Assembly: GCA_963811165.1 (NCBI GenBank)
Contig: CAWEQH010000004.1
Coordinates: 672,001-736,000, forward strand
DNA length: 64,000 nucleotides
Origin: an uncultured Nitrospiraceae bacterium
Lineage (GTDB): Bacteria > Nitrospirota > Thermodesulfovibrionia > Thermodesulfovibrionales > UBA6898
Direction of reading: 5' to 3'
The notes beneath the pieces are model-generated. The model saw only the letters and a list, made by a program, of their open reading frames with translations, had not been told where the DNA came from and did not search any database. Both the position numbers and the translations under genes were made by a program. Of this stretch, positions 49,892 through 62,892 are shown piece after piece; the first letter of the stretch is position 1, and the number at the start of each line of letters is the position of its first letter.

Positions 49892-50899
49892 TTAGTATCC
49901 TTCGAGTGTAAAAGACGTAAAGACCATCGGTACCAATGTGATCAAAACAAAGACCGTGAGGCAGACTATTGAGACGAGCGCCCATCTCCGCTGTACCCCC
50001 GGGACCAGGCCCGAAAGGGTCCCTATCTTCCTGAACGGCTCGATGACCCCTGTCATCGCCCCGAAGAAGCTTCCGGCAAAAAGGGAGAAGTAGAGCGGAT
50101 ATCCTGAGTAATAATATTCCGATTGAAGCATATCAAAAGGGCAGTGGTGAGTAGGGACCTGGTAGAAATAGAGCGAGATGAAAGAGATTATCGAGGCGAT
50201 CGATATGACGAAGAAGGCCGAAGACAAAATCGAAAAAGGGATAACGAACAGTTTGCGCGCCGATTTCATCACCGCCAGGCCAAAAGCGACCACCAAGACA
50301 AAAGAACCGAAGAAGAGGGCCTCTGTCTGCCTGACGGGCAGCGAGGCCAGGGAACTGCCGATACTCGTTCCGCCTTCGCTGAAGAGTACGCCGCAACAGG
50401 AAGTGATGACGTCAGGGTTTAAACTGCCGAAATAAAGTATCTGAAGGACGTAGCCGGCAAGGGCGAACGGGATGATGAAGAGCAAAAGCCTGTATTTTTT
50501 TTTTGTAAGGGGATAATCTTCGGCCCGGTTGTCGAGACTGTCCATGGCTATCCACGCGGATGCGAGAAAGAAGATTGCGATCTTTACGTAAAGCGCCGGG
50601 AATCCGAAGGAGTTCGCGTTTAAAGAACCGGTGGCGCACATCGCGCCGACCAGCAGGTTATGCAGGTCGTCTGCGGTATAGACGAAGAGGAAGGTCGAGA
50701 CTATCTCAAAGGCCAGTCCGTATCTGAGGAGGGTCGAGACAAGGTAGGTCTTTCTTTCGAGCGCCAGTTGCTTCTCGGAACTGCTTCCAATGTCCCACCT
50801 CCTTAGGATTGTTACTCCGAGACCGGCCGCGTAAGTAAGAAGCAGGAGCGTAATTCCCGAACCCAGGAGCAGGGCGATAATGCCGGGATGGAGTATCAT
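49892..50899 (-). CDS. Polytopic membrane protein with Cys/His motifs, NosL-ABC cluster
   Basis: Many TM segments, motifs GAMCATG, TSCCG, THHCPF. ATG at 50899. Confidence 0.8.
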   Translation of the reverse strand: MILHPGIIALLLGSGITLLLLTYAAGLGVTILRRWDIGSSSEKQLALERKTYLVSTLLRYGLAFEIVSTFLFVYTADDLHNLLVGAMCATGSLNANSFGFPALYVKIAIFFLASAWIAMDSLDNRAEDYPLTKKKYRLLLFIIPFALAGYVLQILYFGSLNPDVITSCCGVLFSEGGTSIGSSLASLPVRQTEALFFGSFVLVVAFGLAVMKSARKLFVIPFSILSSAFFVISIASIISFISLYFYQVPTHHCPFDMLQSEYYYSGYPLYFSLFAGSFFGAMTGVIEPFRKIGTLSGLVPGVQRRWALVSIVCLTVFVLITLVPMVFTSFTLEGY

Positions 50900-50901
50900 C
50901 C

Positions 50902-51597
50902 CTATCTCCTTAAGACGCTCTTGACCATCCCGTCGCGCATCTCGACGGTGAGGGTGACGTATTCGTGTTCGAACACGAGCGGGTCGTGCGAGGCGATTAC
51001 GACCGTCTTCCCTCTGTCCCATAATTCTTTCATAATACCCATATAATCCCGTGAGAGCGCAGTATCGAGATGGGCGGTCGGCTCATCGGCAAGCACCACT
51101 TCCGGATCATTTATCAGCGCCCTGGCGATCGCGGTCCTCTGCTGTTCGCCGCCTGAAAGGCCCTGCACCGGGAAGTCTTTCCGTTTGGACATTCCGAGTC
51201 CCTCAAGTATGCCTTCGGCCTTTTTCCGGAGCACGGAAACGTTTGTGTCCGTAGGATAAAGGGGCACCATGACGTTTTGAAGTACGGACAGCCCCTGTAT
51301 AAGATGAAACTGCTGGAAGATAAAACCGAAGGTCTTTCGCCTGATGTCGGTAAGGAACCTTTCAGGCAGGTGAGAGATGTCTCTTTCTTTGAGTGTGATC
51401 GAGCCGGAAGTCGGGCGGGTCATGCAGCCGATGAGGGAAAGGAGGGTCGTCTTGCCCGATCCGCTCGGACCCTTGATGACCGCAAAGTCTCCCCGGTCGA
51501 TGTCGATAGTGACGCTGTTTACCGCAAGCGCCTCATTGGCTTTGCCCTTGTTGTAGTATTTCGTGAGGCTTTCCGTTTTTATTATGGTTTTGTTCAT
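50902..51597 (-). CDS. ABC transporter ATPase (LolD/MacB type)
   Basis: GPSGSGKTT, FIFQQF, LSGGEQQR, ADEPT, SHD. Confidence 0.92.
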   Translation of the reverse strand: MNKTIIKTESLTKYYNKGKANEALAVNSVTIDIDRGDFAVIKGPSGSGKTTLLSLIGCMTRPTSGSITLKERDISHLPERFLTDIRRKTFGFIFQQFHLIQGLSVLQNVMVPLYPTDTNVSVLRKKAEGILEGLGMSKRKDFPVQGLSGGEQQRTAIARALINDPEVVLADEPTAHLDTALSRDYMGIMKELWDRGKTVVIASHDPLVFEHEYVTLTVEMRDGMVKSVLRR

Positions 51598-51660
51598 GGA
51601 TTTGGTTCTTTGCCTTATTTCTTTTTATCTTTTCGATTCACTTTTCACGACTCACGTTTT

Positions 51661-52833
51661 TCAGCCCCTCACCACTTCGTCCGGATCAGTGATCGCCGAC
51701 TTCCAGGAAGGTATGATCGTAGAAGCGATATAAGGGATGACGGTCAGCGCCATCAGCATCACGATCTGATAAGGGTCGATGAAAGGGGTGAGCCTGAAAT
51801 CCGGATAGATTACGGACCATCCTTTCAGGGCCGGAGCGAAGATGGAAGCCCCGAAGAAGTAGACATGCAGGTACGCAAATATTACCCCCATGAGAAAGGA
51901 CGAAAGCGAGATGACGAGACCCTCCCAGAATTTCATCTCGAGTATGTCGGAGGTCTCCCATCCTATGGCCTTAAGGATGCCTATTTCTTTTTTCTCCTCT
52001 GCGCTCAGGCCCGATGCCTTGTCCCACGCAAGGATGATAAACGCAACGAGCGCCCCGGCAAAGAGGGTCACGATCAGCCCCGACCTCCAGCCAAAGACCG
52101 CATCGTAGGTGCGTATGATCTCCTTCCTGAGAATCGGCCTTGTGTCGGGGAACTCTGCCCTGATCTTTCCGGCGATGACCGGCGCCTCGGCCTCATTGCT
52201 TACCGAGACCGCAAGGTCGGTGGCCATTCCCTTGGGCATACCGAACAACTTTACGACATCGGGTTGGCTGATCACGAGAAGGTCTGCGGTGAGAAGTTCG
52301 GACTCGGATTCGAAGATGCCGATGACCTGGAAGTCCATGAGATCACCTGAAGAGGAAAGAAGAGAGATAGTGCCGCCCAGGTCTACGAACCTTACCTTCG
52401 CTACCCCCCTGCCCACGGCCGCAACGCCTGTTTCGTCTTTCCCGGGCAGCCGTCCCCTTAGCATGCGGTTGTTCGCCGAAACCGCTGTGGAGGCGGCAAC
52501 GATCGTATAATTCGCCTTTACGAGCGTATCATAATAATATCCCCAGTAATGGGGTTCGACAGAGGATACACCGGGGACTCCTTCAATATATTTGGCGATC
52601 TTTACAGGGATTAGCTCGTGCCGTCCCGCGGACATCCTCTGGACGATCAACTCCGGCGAGCCCTTCAATATAAGCAGGGCCTCGCGCTTGAAGGAATAGG
52701 AAAGGAATAGTATCGAGCCCGTGATGAAGACGATGAATGTAAATACCAGGATAATGCCTGCGTTTTTGAACTTTCTTCTTAGAAGCGACTGGAGCGTAAA
52801 GTCCAGGACGTTGACGTGGCTGTTGAGGCTCAT
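51661..52833 (-). CDS. ABC transporter permease (FtsX/LolE/MacB type)
   Basis: One TM, large periplasmic loop, three TMs, KKEIGILKAIGW. Confidence 0.88.
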   Translation of the reverse strand: MSLNSHVNVLDFTLQSLLRRKFKNAGIILVFTFIVFITGSILFLSYSFKREALLILKGSPELIVQRMSAGRHELIPVKIAKYIEGVPGVSSVEPHYWGYYYDTLVKANYTIVAASTAVSANNRMLRGRLPGKDETGVAAVGRGVAKVRFVDLGGTISLLSSSGDLMDFQVIGIFESESELLTADLLVISQPDVVKLFGMPKGMATDLAVSVSNEAEAPVIAGKIRAEFPDTRPILRKEIIRTYDAVFGWRSGLIVTLFAGALVAFIILAWDKASGLSAEEKKEIGILKAIGWETSDILEMKFWEGLVISLSSFLMGVIFAYLHVYFFGASIFAPALKGWSVIYPDFRLTPFIDPYQIVMLMALTVIPYIASTIIPSWKSAITDPDEVVRG

Positions 52834-53147
52834 CGGCCTTTCACTTTCATCTCGGTGCCCAGAAGACTGAAATCCGGAGGTGGCGTGACAGAACCTGAAG
52901 GGAAATGTTCTATCGAGCCGGGGTAGTCCTGAAATGCCGAGAAGAGGTCCGCCTGCGAGGGGTTCCTCGTGTAACGGGCATCGTTTGTAAAGGAGAGGTC
53001 CGTCAGTTTGAGTGCCGAGGTGATCTCATTAAGATCGCGGCCTTCACTTAGGAACCTCGATACGGATACCGCGGAAGTCGCCGCCAGAAAAGAGATCGTC
53101 AGCAGGCAGATCAGAATAAAAAAGAAAAAGACGCGCGATTTGCGCAA
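52830..53147 (-). CDS. Small membrane-anchored hypothetical protein
   Basis: N-terminal TM, LTDL...ARYTR.PSQAD..S.FQD.P...EHFPSGS. Coupled between nosL and the permease. Confidence 0.7.
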   Translation of the reverse strand: MRKSRVFFFFILICLLTISFLAATSAVSVSRFLSEGRDLNEITSALKLTDLSFTNDARYTRNPSQADLFSAFQDYPGSIEHFPSGSVTPPPDFSLLGTEMKVKGR

Positions 53148-53633
53148 TTACTGTAGGTCCTCCTTCCTTACCTCATCGAACCTCAGCATCTTTTTGCCGT
53201 GGTGGTCCTTCATGAACTCCTTCGCCTTCCCGATTGATTCGACAGGGACCAGCTCAACACCCATTGGACCGTTAACGTCGCTGCCCTGAATGAAGAAGAG
53301 TTTCCTGGCGTCGGCAAGCTTGGCAGAGTAATATTCGGTCACATACATCGCGTCGATGTCCGCCTGTTTCTTTGAGGGGTTATACTTGGCAAGGTTGAAA
53401 TAGTACCTGAACATGTCCTTCGGGCCGTCGAAGAAGGCATAGGTCCCGTCGGTAAAAATGATCTGAGAGATCCAGTTGGGGTACCCCGCGACCAGCATGC
53501 CGCATACCTGGCATTTGTCGCTCTTTTTCACCTCGACCGGCTTCCTCTGCGCAGCCTGCGTCACCCCACAGATAGAAAGAAGCGCCGCAGCCGCTACCAT
53601 GAACCCCGAGATAAATTTCACTGTTTTTCCCAT
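53148..53633 (-). CDS. nosL: NosL family copper-binding accessory protein
   Basis: CQVCGM, FFDGPKDM, GSDV.GPMG.EL, F..DH.G. Confidence 0.85.
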   Translation of the reverse strand: MGKTVKFISGFMVAAAALLSICGVTQAAQRKPVEVKKSDKCQVCGMLVAGYPNWISQIIFTDGTYAFFDGPKDMFRYYFNLAKYNPSKKQADIDAMYVTEYYSAKLADARKLFFIQGSDVNGPMGVELVPVESIGKAKEFMKDHHGKKMLRFDEVRKEDLQ

Positions 53634-56143: not shown

Positions 56144-56485
56144 CTACCGCGCCCTGGCCCCGGGATAGGTGCCTTTCTTTGTTACCGGGCAGCAAGGCGG
56201 GGCAGGCAATTCCTCTTTATATTCTCTGTCGATCAGGGCGATAAGGTCGGGTATCATCGGGTCCTTAAGAAAATAGCATTTCAATCTTCCGTCTACAAAA
56301 AAATCGATCAGCCCGTACCTTCTCATGAGGGAAAGATGCTGGGAAACATTCGGCTGGCGAATATCGAGGAACTCTTCAAAATCGCTTACGCACTTCACCC
56401 CTTCTCTCAGTTCTCTAAGAATCTTGATCCTTACAGGGTGGGCGATGACTTTCAGCACCTCTGTTTTCCTGTCTATCTCGGTCAT
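56144..56485 (-). CDS. ArsR/SmtB family regulator with C-terminal PPCCP tail (TsoR-like)
   Basis: LKVIAHPVRIKIL, KCVSD, QPNVSQHL HTH, four Cys in total. Confidence 0.88.
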   Translation of the reverse strand: MTEIDRKTEVLKVIAHPVRIKILRELREGVKCVSDFEEFLDIRQPNVSQHLSLMRRYGLIDFFVDGRLKCYFLKDPMIPDLIALIDREYKEELPAPPCCPVTKKGTYPGARAR

Positions 56486-56659
56486 AGTAACTCCTTAGCG
56501 CCTCTTAATAATAATTAATGAAGAGGGACGTTATCAATAACAAAGTGGTAGCTGCGTCCGTCCTTTGTGAGGATGTTGTGACGCGAACAAGGACTTTGCG
56601 GACAGCGCTCGCCAGTTTGGATGCGCTTCCCGGTTTTCCGATTTTTCGCATGCCTTTTT

Positions 56660-57850
56660 TCAGTACGGCCAGTTGCTCAGACCATGCTTCATCTTGTAGA
56701 GAAAGTACCGTTCAAACGATGCCTTGAGCCATTTCACCCAGACACCTTTTCTCGTATACGACTCTTGCCTCGGCGGAAGGGCGGGTGCCGCCTTCATAAT
56801 GGCGCCGGTATGCCCCATGTCCATGAGACAGACGACATCGATATCGGCTGCGGCAGGCGGAGACGTCCCTCTGATGTCTGAGACAATCGTCGCAGCAGCG
56901 GTCTTCGCCATCTTTACCGTCATGAAGCCGGTCTTTGGGACGCCGACAGGAACGGGTGTCGGTTCCGGAGGAGCTATGGCCATAGTCACTCCGACGGCGA
57001 AGATATTCCTGTATTTCGTGTGCCGGTAGTTTTTGTCAACGGGGATGAACCCTCTGGGATTGCCGAGCGGCGCAACAGCGGGAACACCCTTGAAAGGGGG
57101 TGCTATCATGGCGAGGTTGAAGGGTATTTTTGAGCCGTCCTTGAGCCTTATTTCTCCCGGCGCCACCTCCTGAATAGACTGGCTTGTTAATGGCTTTATG
57201 TCCCGCTCCGCAAATTCGTCCTCCATCAACCTCTTCGATTTTCCGAGACCGCCGATTCCCATATGGCCCAGGTAAGGCTCTGACGTCAGGTAGAGAATTG
57301 GTACCTCGTGGCGCATCTTCCTTCTTCGGAGTTCGGCATCCATCTCGAAGGCGAGCTCGTAGGATGGTCCGAAACAGCTCACCATCTGGGCGGAGCCGAC
57401 GACGACCGGCCCGGGCGTTTCGATAATCTTTCTCCAGCTCTGCGCGGTTCTTACCGCGTGGGCGAGCGTGAACGTGCAGTCTGTGTGCCCTTTGTCGGGT
57501 CCCAGTCCGGGTATCTCTTCGAATGAAAGATAAGGGCCGGTGGAGATGACAAGAAAGTCATAGGCCGTCTCCCCCGCCGCTGTAAGGACTTTGCCTGAGT
57601 CAGGGTCCACCTGTTTTGCCGCTTCATGGATAAAATTTATCCCCTTCGGTCTAAGTATCTCGCTGACTTTAAGGGTTATGTCTTCCGGCTTCCTCCAGCC
57701 CATGATAAGCCAGGGAAGAGAAGGCAGGAATATAAATCTGTCATCATCGCTGATGACGGTTATATCAACACCCTTGCCAAGCAGCCTTTTCAACTCTAGA
57801 GCCGCTGTCAGACCTCCAAAAGAACCTCCCAGGACAACTATCTTCGCCAT
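56660..57850 (-). CDS. sqr: Sulfide:quinone oxidoreductase-like flavoprotein
   Basis: GGSFGG FAD motif, F.PSLPW, SCFGPSYE (catalytic Cys), VGVPKTG, VCLMDMG (second Cys), K..FERYFL. Confidence 0.85.
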   Translation of the reverse strand: MAKIVVLGGSFGGLTAALELKRLLGKGVDITVISDDDRFIFLPSLPWLIMGWRKPEDITLKVSEILRPKGINFIHEAAKQVDPDSGKVLTAAGETAYDFLVISTGPYLSFEEIPGLGPDKGHTDCTFTLAHAVRTAQSWRKIIETPGPVVVGSAQMVSCFGPSYELAFEMDAELRRRKMRHEVPILYLTSEPYLGHMGIGGLGKSKRLMEDEFAERDIKPLTSQSIQEVAPGEIRLKDGSKIPFNLAMIAPPFKGVPAVAPLGNPRGFIPVDKNYRHTKYRNIFAVGVTMAIAPPEPTPVPVGVPKTGFMTVKMAKTAAATIVSDIRGTSPPAAADIDVVCLMDMGHTGAIMKAAPALPPRQESYTRKGVWVKWLKASFERYFLYKMKHGLSNWPY

Positions 57851-57942
57851 GATACCTCCCTTTGCTATAGTGATGAGAAGCGAGCCGGATGCTATGTAAT
57901 TTTTTTCTCATACCCTGTCACTCGCAGCTTTCCGCGCCTCCT

Positions 57943-58230
57943 TCAAAACATTCCGATAACCTTATCGCTTTCCGTCATAAGATCAACGAGACTATCGTAA
58001 TTAATGACCTTAATGTCTCTGTACTCACCACTGCCTTTTATGCCGCGCAATTCTTTGTCATCTTCAAGAACATATGCCTTCCCGGCAAACCCCGAGTCTT
58101 CCAGATTCGGTCCCTCGATAAAATAAACCCCGTTTTGCAAAAGGACGATATCCGAGTGCATCTGACAGGAGAGTCTTACGCCCCTTTTCCCCTCCGGTGT
58201 ATCAGGACCGCTTTTTATGAAAACAATCAT
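57943..58230 (-). CDS. DsrH/TusB family sulfur relay protein
   Basis: VLLQNGVY, VLEDD..LRG, INYD.LVDL. Confidence 0.85.
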   Translation of the reverse strand: MIVFIKSGPDTPEGKRGVRLSCQMHSDIVLLQNGVYFIEGPNLEDSGFAGKAYVLEDDKELRGIKGSGEYRDIKVINYDSLVDLMTESDKVIGMF

Positions 58231-58264
58231 AGTGCCTCCTCAAGTTCAACTTCTTGGTACCCAA

Positions 58265-58618
58265 CTAAAAAATCATTGTGATCTCAGAATCGCTGAGCGC
58301 ATCCGCAATCTCGGAGCCATCTGAGAAAATAATCCCTTCAACCATGTCATCTGTGCGAAGATGAGCGTTTATCATAGAAACGTTATCAGCGTAAACAGAA
58401 ACGCCCATATCGATACAATCCCTGATGCCGTCTTCCGCGCTCAGATAACTGGTGCCCGATATGTCCTGACCTTTCCGGGCAACGTGCACTCCATTGTCTA
58501 ATAGGATGAGCTTCACATCCATATCTTCGGTCTTCCCGCCAAGGGCGTGCCGTATCGCCTCAGCGGCTTCCACAGAGCCATAGGGCGGCCTTCTCAAGAT
58601 GATACTGATGCCTTTCAT
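58265..58618 (-). CDS. DsrF/TusC-like (DsrE superfamily) protein
   Basis: RRPPYGS..A.EA.R, L..NGV..A.KGQ. Lies between dsrE and dsrH. Confidence 0.82.
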   Translation of the reverse strand: MKGISIILRRPPYGSVEAAEAIRHALGGKTEDMDVKLILLDNGVHVARKGQDISGTSYLSAEDGIRDCIDMGVSVYADNVSMINAHLRTDDMVEGIIFSDGSEIADALSDSEITMIF

Positions 58619-58626
58619 CTTTCCTC

Positions 58627-58971
58627 CTATACCCCGAGATTCAAAAATATCGGTTTTGATTTGATTACGTTGAAGAGACCTTTCAGGGAACTCATCTGTC
58701 CGCCTTCTATAGAGTCTTCAGCCGCAAGACCGCGGCCCTGCATACAGCCCGTTCAGATGTCTACCTTCAGTCCTCTTCCTACAAGGTCTTCCAATGCCGC
58801 GAGAGATTTTGGGACCTGGCCTTTCACGACCGAAAAGACACCGTCTCCTGAGGCGATAAGCCGCACTTTATGGCCTTTTTTCAGAGCGGCGTCCGCAAGC
58901 ATCAGGATGGTGTGGGTGTTTTCAAAACTATACGGTGTCGTTGAAAAGAACAATGCTATCTCTTTTTGCAT
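58627..58971 (-). CDS. Selenocysteine-containing DsrE/TusD family protein (UxxC)
   Basis: ORF 58753..58971 (TTPY, GDGV, KGQ) stops at TGA 58753-55, but the frame continues TGCMQGRGL...LNLGV-TAG(58627). This gives a full 114-aa DsrE with U at the active-site Cys, ending at the RBS of the next gene. Confidence 0.88.
58720..58737 (-). promoter_or_regulatory. SECIS-like hairpin of the DsrE selenoprotein
   Basis: GGCCGCG-GTCT-TGCGGCT, 15 nt after TGA, with GGUC at the apex. Confidence 0.75.
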
Positions 58972-58986
58972 GCCGTCTCCCTCTCT

Positions 58987-59253
58987 TTATGGCAGATGCT
59001 CTGTTCTGCCCATCTCCTGAATGATTGCGGATTTGAGCTCCGCAATAGATACATCCTGACCCTTGAATACAATAGTGTCATTGATCGCAACCGAAGGAAA
59101 AATGTTTAATAATCTCCGGCTCCTGAAAGACATCTCAGGCTTTTTGATAATTTCTACGTCGAAGGTATATTTTCTGGATAGTTCCGTGACCACGGATTGA
59201 ATATTCGTTCACCGCTTTCCGGGCGGATCATTGAAATAAAGGGTGATGGTCAT
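58987..59253 (-). CDS. Small thioredoxin-fold selenoprotein, NDPPGKRU motif (TsoC-like)
   Basis: GAGGAG and ATG at 59253: MTITLYFNDPPGKR-TGA(59209-11)-TNIQSVVTELS... in frame with ORF 58987..59193. It has the cis-Pro motif FPSVAIND...F.G. 88 aa. Confidence 0.85.
59183..59196 (-). promoter_or_regulatory. SECIS-like hairpin of the TsoC-like gene
   Basis: TCCGT-GGTC-ACGGA, 12 nt after TGA. Confidence 0.78.
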
Positions 59254-59321
59254 TGCGGCGCGCTCCTCACTGGATGGGTAATAATCTTTAGAATTTCTAC
59301 TCTGTTCCCCTTTGAAAGCAC
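59250..59321 (-). pseudogene. 23-aa N-terminal remnant of an ArsR-family gene (or leader peptide)
   Basis: AGAGGAG and GTG: MLSKGNRVEILKIITHPVRSAPQ aligns with DRKTEVLKVIAHPVR of ArsR 56144..56485. Its stop overlaps the next ATG. Confidence 0.65.
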
Positions 59322-59347
59322 TGTTTTTTTCTCCTCTAATTCATGCT

Positions 59348-59384
59348 TACATAAAAATATATAGATATTTGAATGTATTGTCAA
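59348..59384 (-). promoter_or_regulatory. Sigma70 promoter overlapped by a 30-bp palindrome (putative ArsR operator)
   Basis: TTGACA(59384-79)-17 nt-TATATT(59361-56). TACATAAAAATATAT|AGATATTTGAATGTA has 12 of 15 positions paired. Confidence 0.7.
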
Positions 59385-59533
59385 GAGAGATTTTAACAGG
59401 AGTTCCCCCCAGAAATAGAGTTTTGTCAGGGACAAGTCCCTAATGGATAAAGAGAAACTGAATTGCTGAAGTGGTCGAAGTTGGTTTTTGAAAAATTGGG
59501 GGAACCTTGTGCATAGAAAATGTAATGATAGCC

Positions 59534-59631
59534 GTCATACCGGCGAAAGTCGGTATCCAGTGACGTTGTCCTAAAGCATGCCCCGGACCCCGATCCGGGG
59601 TCGCCGGACGCCGGATCAGGTCCGGCATGAC
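59534..59631. repeat. Palindromic interspersed repeat (GTCAT.CCGGC GAAA GTCGG.ATCCAG...CCGGCATGAC type)
   Basis: Terminal GTCAT.CCGG / CCGG.ATGAC with internal hairpins, RPE/REP-like architecture. Confidence 0.65.
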
Positions 59632-59677
59632 AGTCAAAGGTGAAGGGCTTTTTTCTGAGCGGCTAAAGGAGGCCCGG

Positions 59678-61366
59678 CTATTTCGGGTAACTTCCCACTT
59701 CATATATCTGGACCGCTTGGTCCCGCGAGACGTTTTTAAGCAGGCGCCGCCATGGCTGGTCAAAGGCGCCATATCTCTTTTTTTCATTTTCTCCCCAATA
59801 GAGATGGGTCGCCCCGATACTCTTTGCCAGGGAAGGCCAGTCCGGGTCCTCGCGAAATATCCTTTCAAGTTGATTTTCCCTGGCAGCACTGTCGATACCA
59901 TGGGACCAAAGATGTCCGGGATAACCGACTGCGACCCTCGCGCCCCAGAACATGGCCGGATGGTTCGGGTCGGGCGCGACAGCCAGCACCGAGCCCGCAG
60001 GCAGATCGGTAAGGGCGGCCTTCGCGTCCCATAATTCCGCCGCCCGATAGAGTTCGACCCCGGGGCTGTTGCCGGGGAGGGAAGAGACAACGGCTATCGT
60101 ACCGGGGAAGAAAGCAATTAAGCCCGTTAAGATGGCAGACAAGGGAGGCAGGTTGATTACCCACGTCCTCCAGGCTACCCATGCGATAAGGAGATATAAC
60201 CAAATCAAGACCTTGATATTGTCCCAGTCCCATGGGGCGAGCATAACAAAAGTAAATACGATAAAGAGAAGCAAAGACGTGACCGCTATCCATCGCAGCT
60301 TGGCGTATGACTTTCTAAAGACCAGGAAGAGCCCCACTGCCGCAAAGGCCAGCCAGGGACCAAGGTTTGTAAGCCAGAAACTGAATAGGTTTTCCTCTCC
60401 GGCGGTCCATCCCGGTTGTATGTGCAAGACCTTTGCCCTTGACAGACCCCCTGCAGAAAATACTGCAAAGACAAGACCGACCGCCACCGCAGGCATCAGG
60501 ATTTCAAGGAGAAGCCGCGGTTTTCTGTAAAGAACAATGAAGATGCCGAGTGCAAGCGAAATAATAAAAAAAGTATGCAGATGAAACCACGCAAGCGACG
60601 CCCAAAGCGCCGCGCACACGGCCTTCTGTACGCGATCCATGGTCCGCTCGCCAAGGAGTGTTTCGGTTATCATCTTTATGACGTACACGCCGGCCGGTAT
60701 CGCAAAGAGAAATCCCCTCTGGGTGATCCAGAGGGAGAGGAAAAAACTTTTCCACGCAAGCGCATCCTGAAAGTCGTGGATTACACCCGTCCCGAAGATC
60801 CTCCAGTTGGCCAGCCCTCCGTTTAAGAAAAAGGCCCCGACACCCCACCATCCCATCCATCGGTGAAGCATTGATACCGCAGCGATCGTCGCAGCCAACC
60901 CGGTCAGGAAGAGATGGCTGCCGGCGGGAACACCCAGGATGTCCCATAAGGCATTATAGATATCCATTCCCAGAGGATACCTGATGAGCTCCCCGGCGAA
61001 GCCCGGATTGTCCGGCCAGAAATGCGCGCCGCCGGCGATATAGCGTATGTATTGGATATGCATCGAGAGGTCCCCGAAATTATTCGCATGAAGGGTCCTT
61101 AATCCGTTTTGGGAGTAATAAAGAAGATAGAGAAAGTGCTCCAGTCCTGCAAAAAGAATGAACCCATATAATAAGGCGGGGACTAACTTGATATCCGGAA
61201 ACAGTCCCCTGTCTTCCTTGAACCTAAGCCAGACGGCGATACCGGCGGCAGCTCCCAACGCCAGGCTTACTGCGGCAATCGCGGTGTTGAGCCTCCCTGC
61301 CGCCAAACCCAGGACCATTGCACTAAAGGTGGAAACCGCTATATGTATCAAAAAAGCAAGCGCCAT
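59678..61366 (-). CDS. Polytopic membrane protein, probable GT-C-fold glycosyltransferase
   Basis: More than 10 TMs, periplasmic-loop NFGDLSMH...WPDNP...YPLG.D, PWDWDNIK, GYPGHLWSHG. Confidence 0.65.
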   Translation of the reverse strand: MALAFLIHIAVSTFSAMVLGLAAGRLNTAIAAVSLALGAAAGIAVWLRFKEDRGLFPDIKLVPALLYGFILFAGLEHFLYLLYYSQNGLRTLHANNFGDLSMHIQYIRYIAGGAHFWPDNPGFAGELIRYPLGMDIYNALWDILGVPAGSHLFLTGLAATIAAVSMLHRWMGWWGVGAFFLNGGLANWRIFGTGVIHDFQDALAWKSFFLSLWITQRGFLFAIPAGVYVIKMITETLLGERTMDRVQKAVCAALWASLAWFHLHTFFIISLALGIFIVLYRKPRLLLEILMPAVAVGLVFAVFSAGGLSRAKVLHIQPGWTAGEENLFSFWLTNLGPWLAFAAVGLFLVFRKSYAKLRWIAVTSLLLFIVFTFVMLAPWDWDNIKVLIWLYLLIAWVAWRTWVINLPPLSAILTGLIAFFPGTIAVVSSLPGNSPGVELYRAAELWDAKAALTDLPAGSVLAVAPDPNHPAMFWGARVAVGYPGHLWSHGIDSAARENQLERIFREDPDWPSLAKSIGATHLYWGENEKKRYGAFDQPWRRLLKNVSRDQAVQIYEVGSYPK

Positions 61367-61368
61367 TT

Positions 61369-62892
61369 CTAGGTCCTCTTTTCCTCCGCCGTTACGGACG
61401 GTCCGAACCCCGGCAAGTCCATCCCCTGAAAAACGGTCTTCTTCAGATACACGATGACAGGTGTACGGGCGTCTCTGAGTTCTATTACGCGTCCGAAGTA
61501 AAGACCCTCGGTGTCTTTATCGTCGTGGGTGGCCTCGGCAAAGATCACATCCGCCTTCTCAGTGAAGGCCTTACTGGAATCTCCAAAGCCTGTATTGGGG
61601 AAACGGGAAAACAACCACGGAAGGGGCCAGGAATTGTTCAAGTTTATCTGCACGGTCATGTTTTGAGAATCGGGCGAAGACGCGATCTTCCTCCTTATTA
61701 TCTCCTCGATCTCTTTTAGGTCATTTTTCGTCTGGACATACACGTACGGCTCCGAAGGATCGGTATAATGAATGAAGTTCAATTTTATCGATGTCGCCGC
61801 CGATTGTATGACGATGACGGCGATAGCACACCAGGAAAGCCAATAGACCGTCTTGCCCCGCCGCTGAGTGAAAATGAATTCGATCCAAAGACCGGCCACG
61901 ATGACAAAGGGCCATAAGATGGTTATGATGCACCACGGCGTTTTATAGGGGATAAGGGAATAGACAAGCAAATTGACGGTCGCAAGTGCTGAGAAAAACC
62001 GCATCTTCCATGACTGTCCGAAAAGCCCTATGAATGCCCCAACCAGCCCCAGGGCAGCGGCCCATTCGTAACGTCCAAACAACGTGAGCCAATACGTAAA
62101 AGGCTTGTCATGTCCGGAACCGCCGACGCCGGTTTTAAGCCAGGGCATAAGTGCAGTAAAAAAGTCTGTCGCTCCTTGCCGGTGATGAAAGAATCCCGTG
62201 AATAACGCAAGCCAGATAAAAAAACATACGAAAGAGATCTTTAGAACCAAAGCTCTGTCTACGTCTTTTAAGGACAGAGACGGAGAAGGTCCTGCCTTGA
62301 GGTCCATCCATTTCATGACTCTGGGGGAAAAGCCGGACCATCCCCAGGCAAAAACGAGCGAAAAAAGCAAAATCACAAAGGTCTCTTTGAGCAAAATACA
62401 TCCGAGAAGGCCGGCAAAAGACCAGATAATCCCCTGTTTCCCGCGCTCCTCTTTTGTCCTTAAAAACCCTGTCACAAGGAGGACCTGAAAAAAGACGAAG
62501 GGTGACTCATGGATCGCCGAGCGACCGAAAAAGGAGATGCCGGGACTCAAGGCGAGCGCCGATGCAGCAAAAAAGGATGTGTAACGTCCCAGAAGATCGC
62601 GGTTCCTCAGTACCAGCCATACAGACAAGGTCGAAAAAAGGGCAGTTACCGCCCTGAAGGAGCCGATACCGAAGCCGAAGATCTTTTCTGAAATCTGCAG
62701 AAGGTAAAACAAGAGCGGTCCATGATAGTTATGAGGGTCGTAGATATAGAAACCGGTTGCCCAGATCTGATTGACAAAAAAACCGTTTCCAGCCTCGTCT
62801 GAGTGGGGGGGCTTAAGAGGCAGGTCCGTAAAACAAAGGACAAAAGAGACCAAGATGATCGACCAGCCGATTATTCTGTCTTTATCCTTCAT
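61369..62892 (-). CDS. TIGR03663/Agl23-like GT-C membrane glycosyltransferase
   Basis: P.HSDEA..GFF, Y.YDP.NYHGP, LKET, GHDKPF.Y, IPYKTPW, PYVYVQT, WPLPW. Confidence 0.78.
   Translation of the reverse strand: MKDKDRIIGWSIILVSFVLCFTDLPLKPPHSDEAGNGFFVNQIWATGFYIYDPHNYHGPLLFYLLQISEKIFGFGIGSFRAVTALFSTLSVWLVLRNRDLLGRYTSFFAASALALSPGISFFGRSAIHESPFVFFQVLLVTGFLRTKEERGKQGIIWSFAGLLGCILLKETFVILLFSLVFAWGWSGFSPRVMKWMDLKAGPSPSLSLKDVDRALVLKISFVCFFIWLALFTGFFHHRQGATDFFTALMPWLKTGVGGSGHDKPFTYWLTLFGRYEWAAALGLVGAFIGLFGQSWKMRFFSALATVNLLVYSLIPYKTPWCIITILWPFVIVAGLWIEFIFTQRRGKTVYWLSWCAIAVIVIQSAATSIKLNFIHYTDPSEPYVYVQTKNDLKEIEEIIRRKIASSPDSQNMTVQINLNNSWPLPWLFSRFPNTGFGDSSKAFTEKADVIFAEATHDDKDTEGLYFGRVIELRDARTPVIVYLKKTVFQGMDLPGFGPSVTAEEKRT

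Follow-up and report, generated by a model that had tools for sequence, protein, structure and literature searches.

The closest described counterparts of the gene cluster analysed here are two forms of the DsrEFH trio, a group of repressor-linked sulfide:quinone oxidoreductase (SQR) operons, and two families of selenoproteins. Type I DsrEFH is represented by the Allochromatium vinosum complex (PDB 2hy5) and by E. coli TusBCD (2d1p). Type II DsrEFH, as described for the YTD cluster, is an E-F-H trio with one active residue in DsrE, a Cys in 99.3% of sequences; it shares its gene neighbourhood with tusA and yeeE, can pass sulfur on to DsrC in vitro, and occurs in hosts with reductive-type dsrAB, many of them Nitrospirota (PMC13293266). 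The SqrR/BigR/CstR operons for homeostasis of reactive sulfur species (RSS) join a repressor to SQR and sulfurtransferases (PMC13467558, PMC10451225), one review listing a set of TauE, rhodanese, DsrE2-like and BigR-type proteins for H2S/RSS homeostasis (PMC13467558), and the suo locus of Synechocystis likewise places a repressor with SQR (PMC4307280). A DsrE-like selenoprotein family (PF02635) with a UxxC motif, in which U is selenocysteine (Sec), has been catalogued since 2005 (PMC1088965; also PMC13188914), and the TsoC selenoproteins since 2025 (PMC13188914). Here we examine a cluster of six genes, all on the minus strand, that spans, as earlier described, positions 56144-59384 of a 64,000-nucleotide stretch of DNA (the window) from an uncultured Nitrospiraceae bacterium (contig CAWEQH010000004.1, positions 672,001 to 736,000) and combines a Sec-containing DsrEFH trio with SQR, TsoC and an ArsR repressor. 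Both selenoprotein families are thus already catalogued, and the DsrEFH-SQR operon is not described in the literature searched: no paper on it was found there (most subscription papers lay outside that scope), and the main text of BSepDB makes no mention of DsrE, Tso or Nitrospirota.

Comparison with relatives indicates that the conserved core of the cluster is ArsR, DsrE (U73xxC76), DsrF, DsrH and a type I-like SQR, placed behind a predicted 12-4-12 operator. The loci surveyed were the best matches together with large contigs rather than a random draw, and related loci are not independent of each other. Among the loci with a TGA-containing dsrE (Sec loci) and enough flanking sequence, dsrF follows dsrE and dsrH is present in 73/73 each, an SQR gene lies downstream of dsrEFH in 65/73, and upstream we see the ArsR of the window (ArsR1) in 61/70 or any ArsR in 62/70. 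It is on these linkage counts that the core is defined as ArsR-DsrE(U)FH-SQR, and the association of SQR with DsrEFH suggested in the preliminary description is clearly conserved. From the constant gene order we also infer an E-F-H complex, presumably a trimer. Accessory genes vary more widely and include TauE (14 Sec loci), selD (5) and rhodanese (3), as well as DsrE2-like proteins and a second, BigR-like ArsR. In the 39 Sec loci with at least 4.5 kb on each side, SQR was found in 34, MMPL in 22, a LolA-like protein in 15, tsoC in 12, a DsrE2-like protein in 12, TauE in 9 and selD in 5. Versions of the same cluster with Cys in place of Sec keep ArsR (12/15) and SQR (9/12), and their existence counts against the earlier suggestion that the relay depends on selenium.

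The two in-frame TGA codons first noted at 59209 and 58753 are both present. In tsoC (58987-59253) the codon at 59211-59209 gives U15 of an 88-residue read-through product, and in dsrE (58627-58971) the codon at 58755-58753 gives U73 of a 114-residue product, where it forms the motif U73-T-G-C76. The genome (G000; 3.66 Mb in 10 contigs, 95% complete) encodes selA, selB and selD, all over cut-off, and tRNA-Sec, with selD itself containing a TGA, so the Sec machinery that the preliminary description called for is in place. Of 117 distinct DsrE proteins from the loci, 82 have TGA at this codon, 33 have TGY and 2 are partial sequences; only TGA, TGC or TGT was seen at this position, as expected of a site held by Sec or Cys. 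All 82 Sec loci combine the TGA with C76, and the sequence past the TGA is conserved. A DsrE profile built from 12 sequences (threshold E 1e-15) matches 143/301 genomes of the order Thermodesulfovibrionales, with TGA in 150/150 of the matches listed and two further matches standing outside that list. A phylum sample gave matches to the DsrE profile in 115/301 genomes at E 1e-12, weak matches to DsrE paralogues included; strong matches beyond the order fall in family f22, with TGA, and family f19, with Cys. The selA gene was found in 134/143 carriers of Sec-DsrE (unlisted non-matches being obtained by subtraction) and in 273/301 genomes of the order, and it is still encoded in the f19 genomes with the Cys form (5/5). 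For tsoC, the NF045708 model matches in 17/61 genomes, with TGA in 18/19 matches and Cys in one. Contigs from other sequencing runs show no listed difference at either TGA where these are covered.

Each TGA is followed by a hairpin resembling a selenocysteine insertion sequence (SECIS). The tsoC hairpin (59183-59196, minus strand) has a 5-bp stem and a GGUC loop 12 nt 3' of the TGA, and that of dsrE (58720-58737, minus strand) has a 7-bp stem 15 nt 3' of the TGA. The spacing of 12-15 nt reported earlier therefore stands for both, and the GGUC apex for tsoC; the dsrE loop reads GUCU when the stem is folded with 7 bp, and GGUCUU when it is folded with 6 bp. Taken singly, the window hairpins are not above chance (z +0.13 to -0.46; p 0.09 and 0.06 versus synonymous recoding). 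Across relatives, a G-loop hairpin stands at the expected place in 21/23 tsoC and 10/12 dsrE genes, where recoding gives an expectation of 20% and 9%, and 57/729 ordinary TGA stops of the genome have such a hairpin. Paired positions of the tsoC hairpin co-vary in two relatives (L024 and L048), and the hairpin rule used is one that missed the selD of 3/3 relatives. Together, the Sec machinery, the conservation of the TGA and the recurrent SECIS-like hairpins argue that both TGAs are almost certainly Sec codons and the genes encode two selenoproteins. Standard annotation misses this in the manner anticipated, as most of the best 120 database homologues of DsrE are 76-residue fragments cut at the TGA.

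The window DsrE matches PF02635 with 53.3 bits, and the domains of the trio are DsrE, DsrE and DsrH. The DsrF-like subunit (58265-58618, minus strand; 117 residues, PF02635) has a Cys68 that is conserved in 73/80 cases, and the DsrH-like subunit (57943-58230, minus strand; 95 residues) matches PF04077 with 38.3 bits. In the alignment U73 takes the place of the active-site Cys of TusD, equivalent to Cys78 of canonical DsrE (numbering of PMC13293266), making DsrE the predicted sulfur-carrying subunit. The DsrE model (pLDDT 72) matches the folds of YchN, TusD and DsrE at TM 0.75-0.76; a sequence search of the PDB with DsrE gave mostly spurious matches to repeat proteins. The trio thus shares with type I DsrEFH and TusBCD the fold (TM 0.75), the subunit order E-F-H and the column of the active residue. 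It differs from them in that all type I cut-offs failed: TIGR03012 has no match at all in the trio, the DsrF-like subunit scores 26.3 bits on TIGR03010 (cut-off 94.15), and the DsrH-like subunit scores 37.1 bits on TIGR03011 (cut-off 49.2). The window DsrE is also only 18% identical to TusD, has a Sec and a second Cys, and does not lie in a dsr or tus operon. The identification of DsrE, DsrF and DsrH made at the outset is therefore upheld by domains, fold and active residue, but membership of type I DsrEFH/TusBCD is not. A published pattern of genomes with 'dsrFH but no dsrE' (PMC11033732) need not reflect Sec, because the type I model also misses the two DsrE paralogues when they are scored at full length.

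Compared with type II DsrEFH, the window trio shares the E-F-H composition, the single active residue position in DsrE and probably a host of the same kind, but it carries a UxxC Sec motif and stands with SQR and ArsR instead of tusA and yeeE. PMC13293266 defines type II by scores over 80 bits on three hidden Markov models, and the window trio may overlap with its subtype 1. TusA and YeeE were each found in 0/65 Sec loci within 5 kb (many of these having short flanks), and neither occurs within 6.5 kb in the 39 long Sec loci. A term search of the supplement of PMC13293266 did not return 'selenocysteine'. The window dsrE fits the catalogued DsrE-like selenoprotein family in its fold, UxxC motif and SECIS, whereas the catalogue entries, as given in the cited sources, come without DsrF and DsrH partners, the SQR link or the Nitrospirota spread. 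In a DsrE tree of 47 rows, thinned at 80% identity, 20 Sec rows form one group (support 97/93) nested among SQR-linked Cys rows, and 8 TusA-linked rows form a separate group (100/100) whose branch is long. The root of the tree is not reliable and a long-branch warning applies; since the branches of E. coli TusD and TusC are very long, the tree does not place the Sec clade relative to type I. On this tree the Sec forms of DsrE are one clade nested among SQR-linked Cys forms, and judged by sequence and synteny the window trio belongs neither to type I DsrEFH/TusBCD nor to the TusA-linked trios that resemble type II. The deepest branch among the Sec forms is a TGA-containing DsrE with a UTSC motif (L126), which has no SQR in 3 kb downstream.

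The same genome encodes a second cluster of the Cys type, dsrH-dsrE-dsrF-tusA, at G000:C1:387441-388960 (L003). Its DsrE is 28% identical to the window DsrE and falls on another clade; it matches 207/301 genomes of the order and co-occurs with the Sec form in 125/143. The second cluster adjoins dsrMKJOP-like genes in one relative (L180), and in several f22 genomes the distance between it and dsrA is approximately 5-6 kb. Its synteny is like that of the type II DsrEFH described in PMC13293266. Divergent from the second cluster is a minus-strand reading frame (G000:C1:386932-387369) that ends in a TGA with an in-frame PYC after it, likely a UxxC selenoprotein. We take its product to be DsbC/DsbG-like.

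The sqr gene (56660-57850, minus strand) encodes a type I-like SQR of 396 residues that matches the solved enzymes PDB 3sy4 and 3hyv at E 1e-94 and 2e-94. C159, C341, H131 and H196 align with the catalytic Cys and His residues of the Acidithiobacillus ferrooxidans enzyme (PMC6335251), and with both catalytic cysteines kept, the earlier assignment as SQR is supported. C341 is found in 51/51 aligned relatives, and H131 is Gln in 32/76. The third Cys is shifted: C125, present in 74/76 relatives, lies two columns ahead of the Cys128 position. At E 1e-8 this gene is the single SQR-like match in the genome. The window SQR scores 101 bits on the type III model, against 250 and 200 bits for the two Cys-cluster SQRs scanned; because of these higher scores, the DsrEFH-SQR pairing likely survived a change of SQR type.

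A predicted sigma70-type promoter, TTGACA-17-TATATT, lies at 59356-59384 on the minus strand (-35 at 59384-59379, -10 at 59361-59356) and is the best of 10 such sites found, with 11/12 matches (4.1 sites expected). Its spacer and -10 are covered by a strandless 12-4-12 inverted repeat (59349-59376), the predicted ArsR operator. The arrangement of TTGACA and operator precedes arsR in most relatives displayed. Of 74 upstream regions, 49 score at least 18/24 for the repeat, compared to 10/1480 shuffles, an enrichment that is partly circular because the consensus was derived from the same regions. When left out of matrix training, the window operator is still the top match in the genome, at 26.4 bits with the next at 21.9, so the palindrome picked out in the preliminary description does appear to be a conserved element; the same genome scan gave no clear further regulon members. 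The first cistron behind the promoter is a seventh open reading frame that the earlier count of six co-directional genes did not include, an N-terminal arsR remnant of 23 codons (59250-59321, minus strand). Its stop overlaps the tsoC start, it stands at the gene's usual place, and 14/19 of its residues are identical to the N-terminus of an ArsR from the same genus. The intact arsR (56144-56485, minus strand) is here downstream of sqr, starting 174 bp past it, and the sqr-arsR order is also seen on contigs of runs X1 and X5. From the arsR remnant to arsR, the gaps between successive genes are -4, 15, 8, 34, 92 and 174 bp. In view of these gaps, especially the last, and of a weaker sigma70-like site of its own upstream of arsR (56508-56537, minus strand; 10/12 matches, which may be chance; no operator match), a single promoter serving all six genes is unproven. 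A single RNA run gave no match to the cluster, an outcome that speaks neither for nor against its expression.

ArsR1 is an ArsR/SmtB repressor of 113 residues that passes NF033788 (69.1 bits, cut-off 55). It scores far below the cut-offs of the BigR (43.7 bits, cut-off 155) and TsoR (35.3 bits, cut-off 115) models. Four cysteines, C32, C70, C98 and C99, are kept in 75-76/76 homologues. C32, in alpha-3, aligns with the CadC metal-site Cys, and the C-terminal CC pair is invariant. The alpha-2 sensor Cys of SqrR/BigR, which in those sensors pairs with a Cys in alpha-5, is lacking, with Arg in that alignment column, and for this reason the earlier suggestion that the repressor senses persulfide is not established. 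The second ArsR of one relative (L060) is BigR-like and does have the alpha-2 Cys.

The product of tsoC passes the TsoC model NF045708 with 65.8 bits (cut-off 45), and the family assignment suggested in the preliminary description is thereby confirmed. It has no cysteine, and its motif NDPPGKRU (NDPPGKR-U15) has D where the family motif has E. The predicted structure (pLDDT 91) is a thioredoxin fold with U15 at the start of helix 1 and an invariant P53 ahead of strand 3; thioredoxins top the matches in a fold search, none at E 0.001, and a sequence search of the PDB gave nothing useful. We see tsoC in 23/70 Sec loci and 12/39 long loci, and it varies even between close strains: a deletion of 59009-59267 removes it from contigs of runs X1 and X2, which come from one study, and of X4, which comes from a different one, whereas X5 retains it. 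On these grounds tsoC is rejected as a core part of the operon, where the preliminary description had placed it, and is best regarded as an optional accessory gene. The locus resembles a Tso neighbourhood in that the TsoC cut-off is passed, an ArsR precedes tsoC, and L053 has tsoC with TsoY; it is unlike one in the D of its motif, in having dsrEFH and sqr as partners, and in an ArsR that is not TsoR. TsoA and TsoX were not found in the genome, TsoY had no tblastn match there, and no TsoB lies in the cluster (a genome-wide search for TsoB was not made). Membership of a Tso operon was rejected, as TsoA, TsoX and TsoY were not found and ArsR is far under the TsoR cut-off. In L053, genes for TsoY and for a TlpA-like protein with UxxC come after tsoC. 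L053, L058, L060 and L061 (4/4) each encode a Sec rhodanese whose SECIS-like hairpin is strong, and methyltransferase genes flank some tsoC loci.

Overall, we slightly favour a reading in which the cluster would be an inducible sulfide-oxidation and sulfane-sulfur relay with an optional TsoC, present in many bacteria commonly regarded as sulfate reducers. In such a relay, the four-cysteine ArsR would bind the 12-4-12 operator and be released when its thiols are modified. SQR would oxidise HS- to sulfane sulfur and reduce quinone, and cytochrome bd or NrfA could reoxidise the quinol; the genome has cydA and nrfA, and napA was not found in it at E 1e-40. Within the DsrEFH complex the sulfane atom would be loaded onto Sec73, in the way that Cys78 is loaded in canonical DsrE, and might be resolved by the second residue of the UxxC motif, Cys76. 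Sulfur would then pass to TusA or DsrC, whose genes lie at other loci, or to rhodanese and TauE in relatives, and TsoC would be a dispensable helper with a thioredoxin fold that may return a partner to its reduced state. The cluster would chiefly control sulfide and reactive sulfur at oxic or nitrate-bearing boundaries, and flow into the Dsr pathway would be possible without being a dedicated purpose. Several observations speak for this reading: SQR follows dsrEFH and ArsR precedes it in most Sec loci (65/73 and 62/70), with the link kept in Cys versions and likely through a change of SQR type; the accessory genes of relatives match the reviewed H2S/RSS homeostasis set; the SQR residues agree with the A. 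ferrooxidans active site; U73 sits at the TusD Cys; TusA is lacking from the flanks surveyed; the TusA-linked Cys trio is the copy seen beside dsr genes; and the genome has cydA and nrfA. Like the RSS-homeostasis operons, the cluster joins a repressor to SQR and sulfurtransferases, and relatives add TauE. In the window the carrier is instead a Sec DsrEFH trio, which also sets it apart from the suo locus, there is no persulfide dioxygenase gene in the cluster, and ArsR1 lacks the SqrR/BigR alpha-2 Cys.

Several points weigh against this reading. SQR is absent beside dsrEFH in 8/73 Sec loci and looks fragmentary in L102, and selD lies within 6.5 kb in 5/39 long loci. With the alpha-2 Cys replaced by Arg and C32 at the CadC metal site, the inducer of ArsR1 may be a metal or metalloid. 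Finally, genomes do not separate detoxification from energy metabolism, because 134/143 carriers also have dsrA.

That last point bears on the strongest rival, which we consider rather unlikely: that the cluster is a dedicated entry for energy-yielding sulfide oxidation or sulfur disproportionation, in which SQR would make sulfane sulfur, Sec-DsrEFH would load DsrC and reductive DsrAB would run in reverse, as proposed for cable bacteria. The genome has dsrAB, dsrC, dsrMKJOP-like genes and aprA, dsrA is also found in 46/51 selected carriers elsewhere in the phylum, and the sulfur transfer from type II DsrEFH to DsrC described in PMC13293266 offers a precedent; the reductive type of the order's dsrAB is taken from PMC11033732. 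In family f12, which holds nearly all strong matches to DsrD (PF08679; 19/21 genomes matching), the Sec cluster is rare (5/54). Yet PF08679 matches 44/201 genomes, about half of them weakly, and weak DsrD-like matches also occur in carriers. An 82-residue reading frame right after dsrB in this genome, with no PF08679 match, may be a divergent DsrD. Furthermore, with dsrA in 276/301 genomes of the order, its co-occurrence with the cluster says little, the copy that stands beside dsr genes is the TusA-linked Cys trio, and in the portions of the gene maps examined no dsrAB or dsrC lies beside the Sec cluster. The dsrA of this genome (G000:C8:231886-234200) is spread over several frames, and one copy of tuf (C8:104266-105077) is split too, which together suggest sequencing indels.

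An improbable alternative is that the cluster serves selenium, its Sec carriers moving or detoxifying selenide or selenite and feeding selenophosphate synthetase. The five long loci with selD in the cluster would suit such a role, as would its position beside tsoC in L051, L057 and L058, the Sec-rhodanese, TsoY and Sec-TlpA genes added in relatives, and the ArsR gene directly before selD in this genome. However, selD is absent in 34/39 long loci and its presence would also be expected simply to supply Sec, while Cys clusters keep SQR and the SQR active site is of the ordinary sulfide type. Still more doubtful is a response to arsenic or thiophilic metal(loid)s in sulfidic settings, modelled on the suo locus, for which PMC4307280 describes SuoR, SuoS and SuoT, with an ArsR repressing a type I SQR and an arsenite transporter. 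The alpha-3 Cys of ArsR1 at the CadC position, its invariant C-terminal CC pair and the methyltransferases that flank some tsoC loci would fit, but among the gene families that recur in the 24 clustered loci there is no arsenic transporter or reductase, and the accessory genes encode sulfur carriers. A TusBCD-like relay for tRNA 2-thiolation, to which the TusD fold (TM 0.75) and the label 'TusD component' given to homologues in some databases might point, is very improbable and was rejected, as the TusD, TusC and TusB cut-offs are unmet, the distribution is patchy (143/301), a repressor and SQR are linked, and no TusA is nearby. That the TGAs are true stops or errors in broken genes, as the dsrA frameshifts of this assembly and the weakness of each single hairpin might hint, was dismissed with near certainty given the TGA in 82/82 Sec loci with conserved sequence beyond it, the restriction to TGA, TGC and TGT, and the Sec machinery of the genome and of the carriers (selA in 134/143).

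Further observations concern the wider genome and the window. A further tRNA-Sec-like gene, whose anticodon is GCA (Cys) (G000:C4:471037-471126, L071:75-164; Rfam tRNA-Sec 57.3 bits), adjoins rhodanese and TusA-domain genes and fits the selC* tRNA-Cys class described in PMC5389517. A 92-nt tRNA-Cys(ACA) called by ARAGORN at G000:C4:644207-644298 is not tRNA-like in sequence and is probably spurious. At G000:C8:482409-483974 (minus strand) the ArsR gene that directly precedes selD follows lepA and a ROK-like gene, and in L049, L051 and L057 this site holds arsR-tsoC with dsrEFH-sqr or selD. Upstream of the promoter, at approximately 59520-59640 of the window, is a GC-rich inverted-repeat stretch; short unrelated contigs match 59531-59611, and it may therefore be a dispersed REP-like element. 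Elsewhere in the window, 49892-53633 (minus strand) holds a NosL-family gene, a small open reading frame, an ABC permease, an ABC ATPase and a 376-residue reading frame without family match, and 59678-62892 (minus strand) holds two membrane proteins, one Agl23-like (TIGR03663 over cut-off) and one of 562 residues without family match.

A bolder proposal, which we hold to be doubtful, is that a third, SQR-coupled DsrEFH class gained Sec once and, in about half of Thermodesulfovibrionales and a second large Nitrospirota family, would pass SQR-derived sulfane sulfur directly through a Se-S intermediate onto DsrC without TusA or YeeE, so that in presumed sulfate reducers a chemical cue would turn on sulfide oxidation in a manner that depends on selenium supply. 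New in the present analysis are the dispensability of TsoC, for which the cluster gives a concrete context, the distinction between this trio and the one linked to TusA, the sister clusters of Cys type, the predicted operator, and an ArsR that is not SqrR/BigR-like. As natural Cys versions exist, the cluster offers a direct test of what Sec contributes to a sulfur carrier. DsrEFH is the main marker in the debate over sulfur oxidation by microbes with reductive-type DsrAB, and we see here what appears to be an additional class of it that is linked with SQR and a repressor, occurs in 143/301 genomes of one order, and is cut by annotation at its active site.

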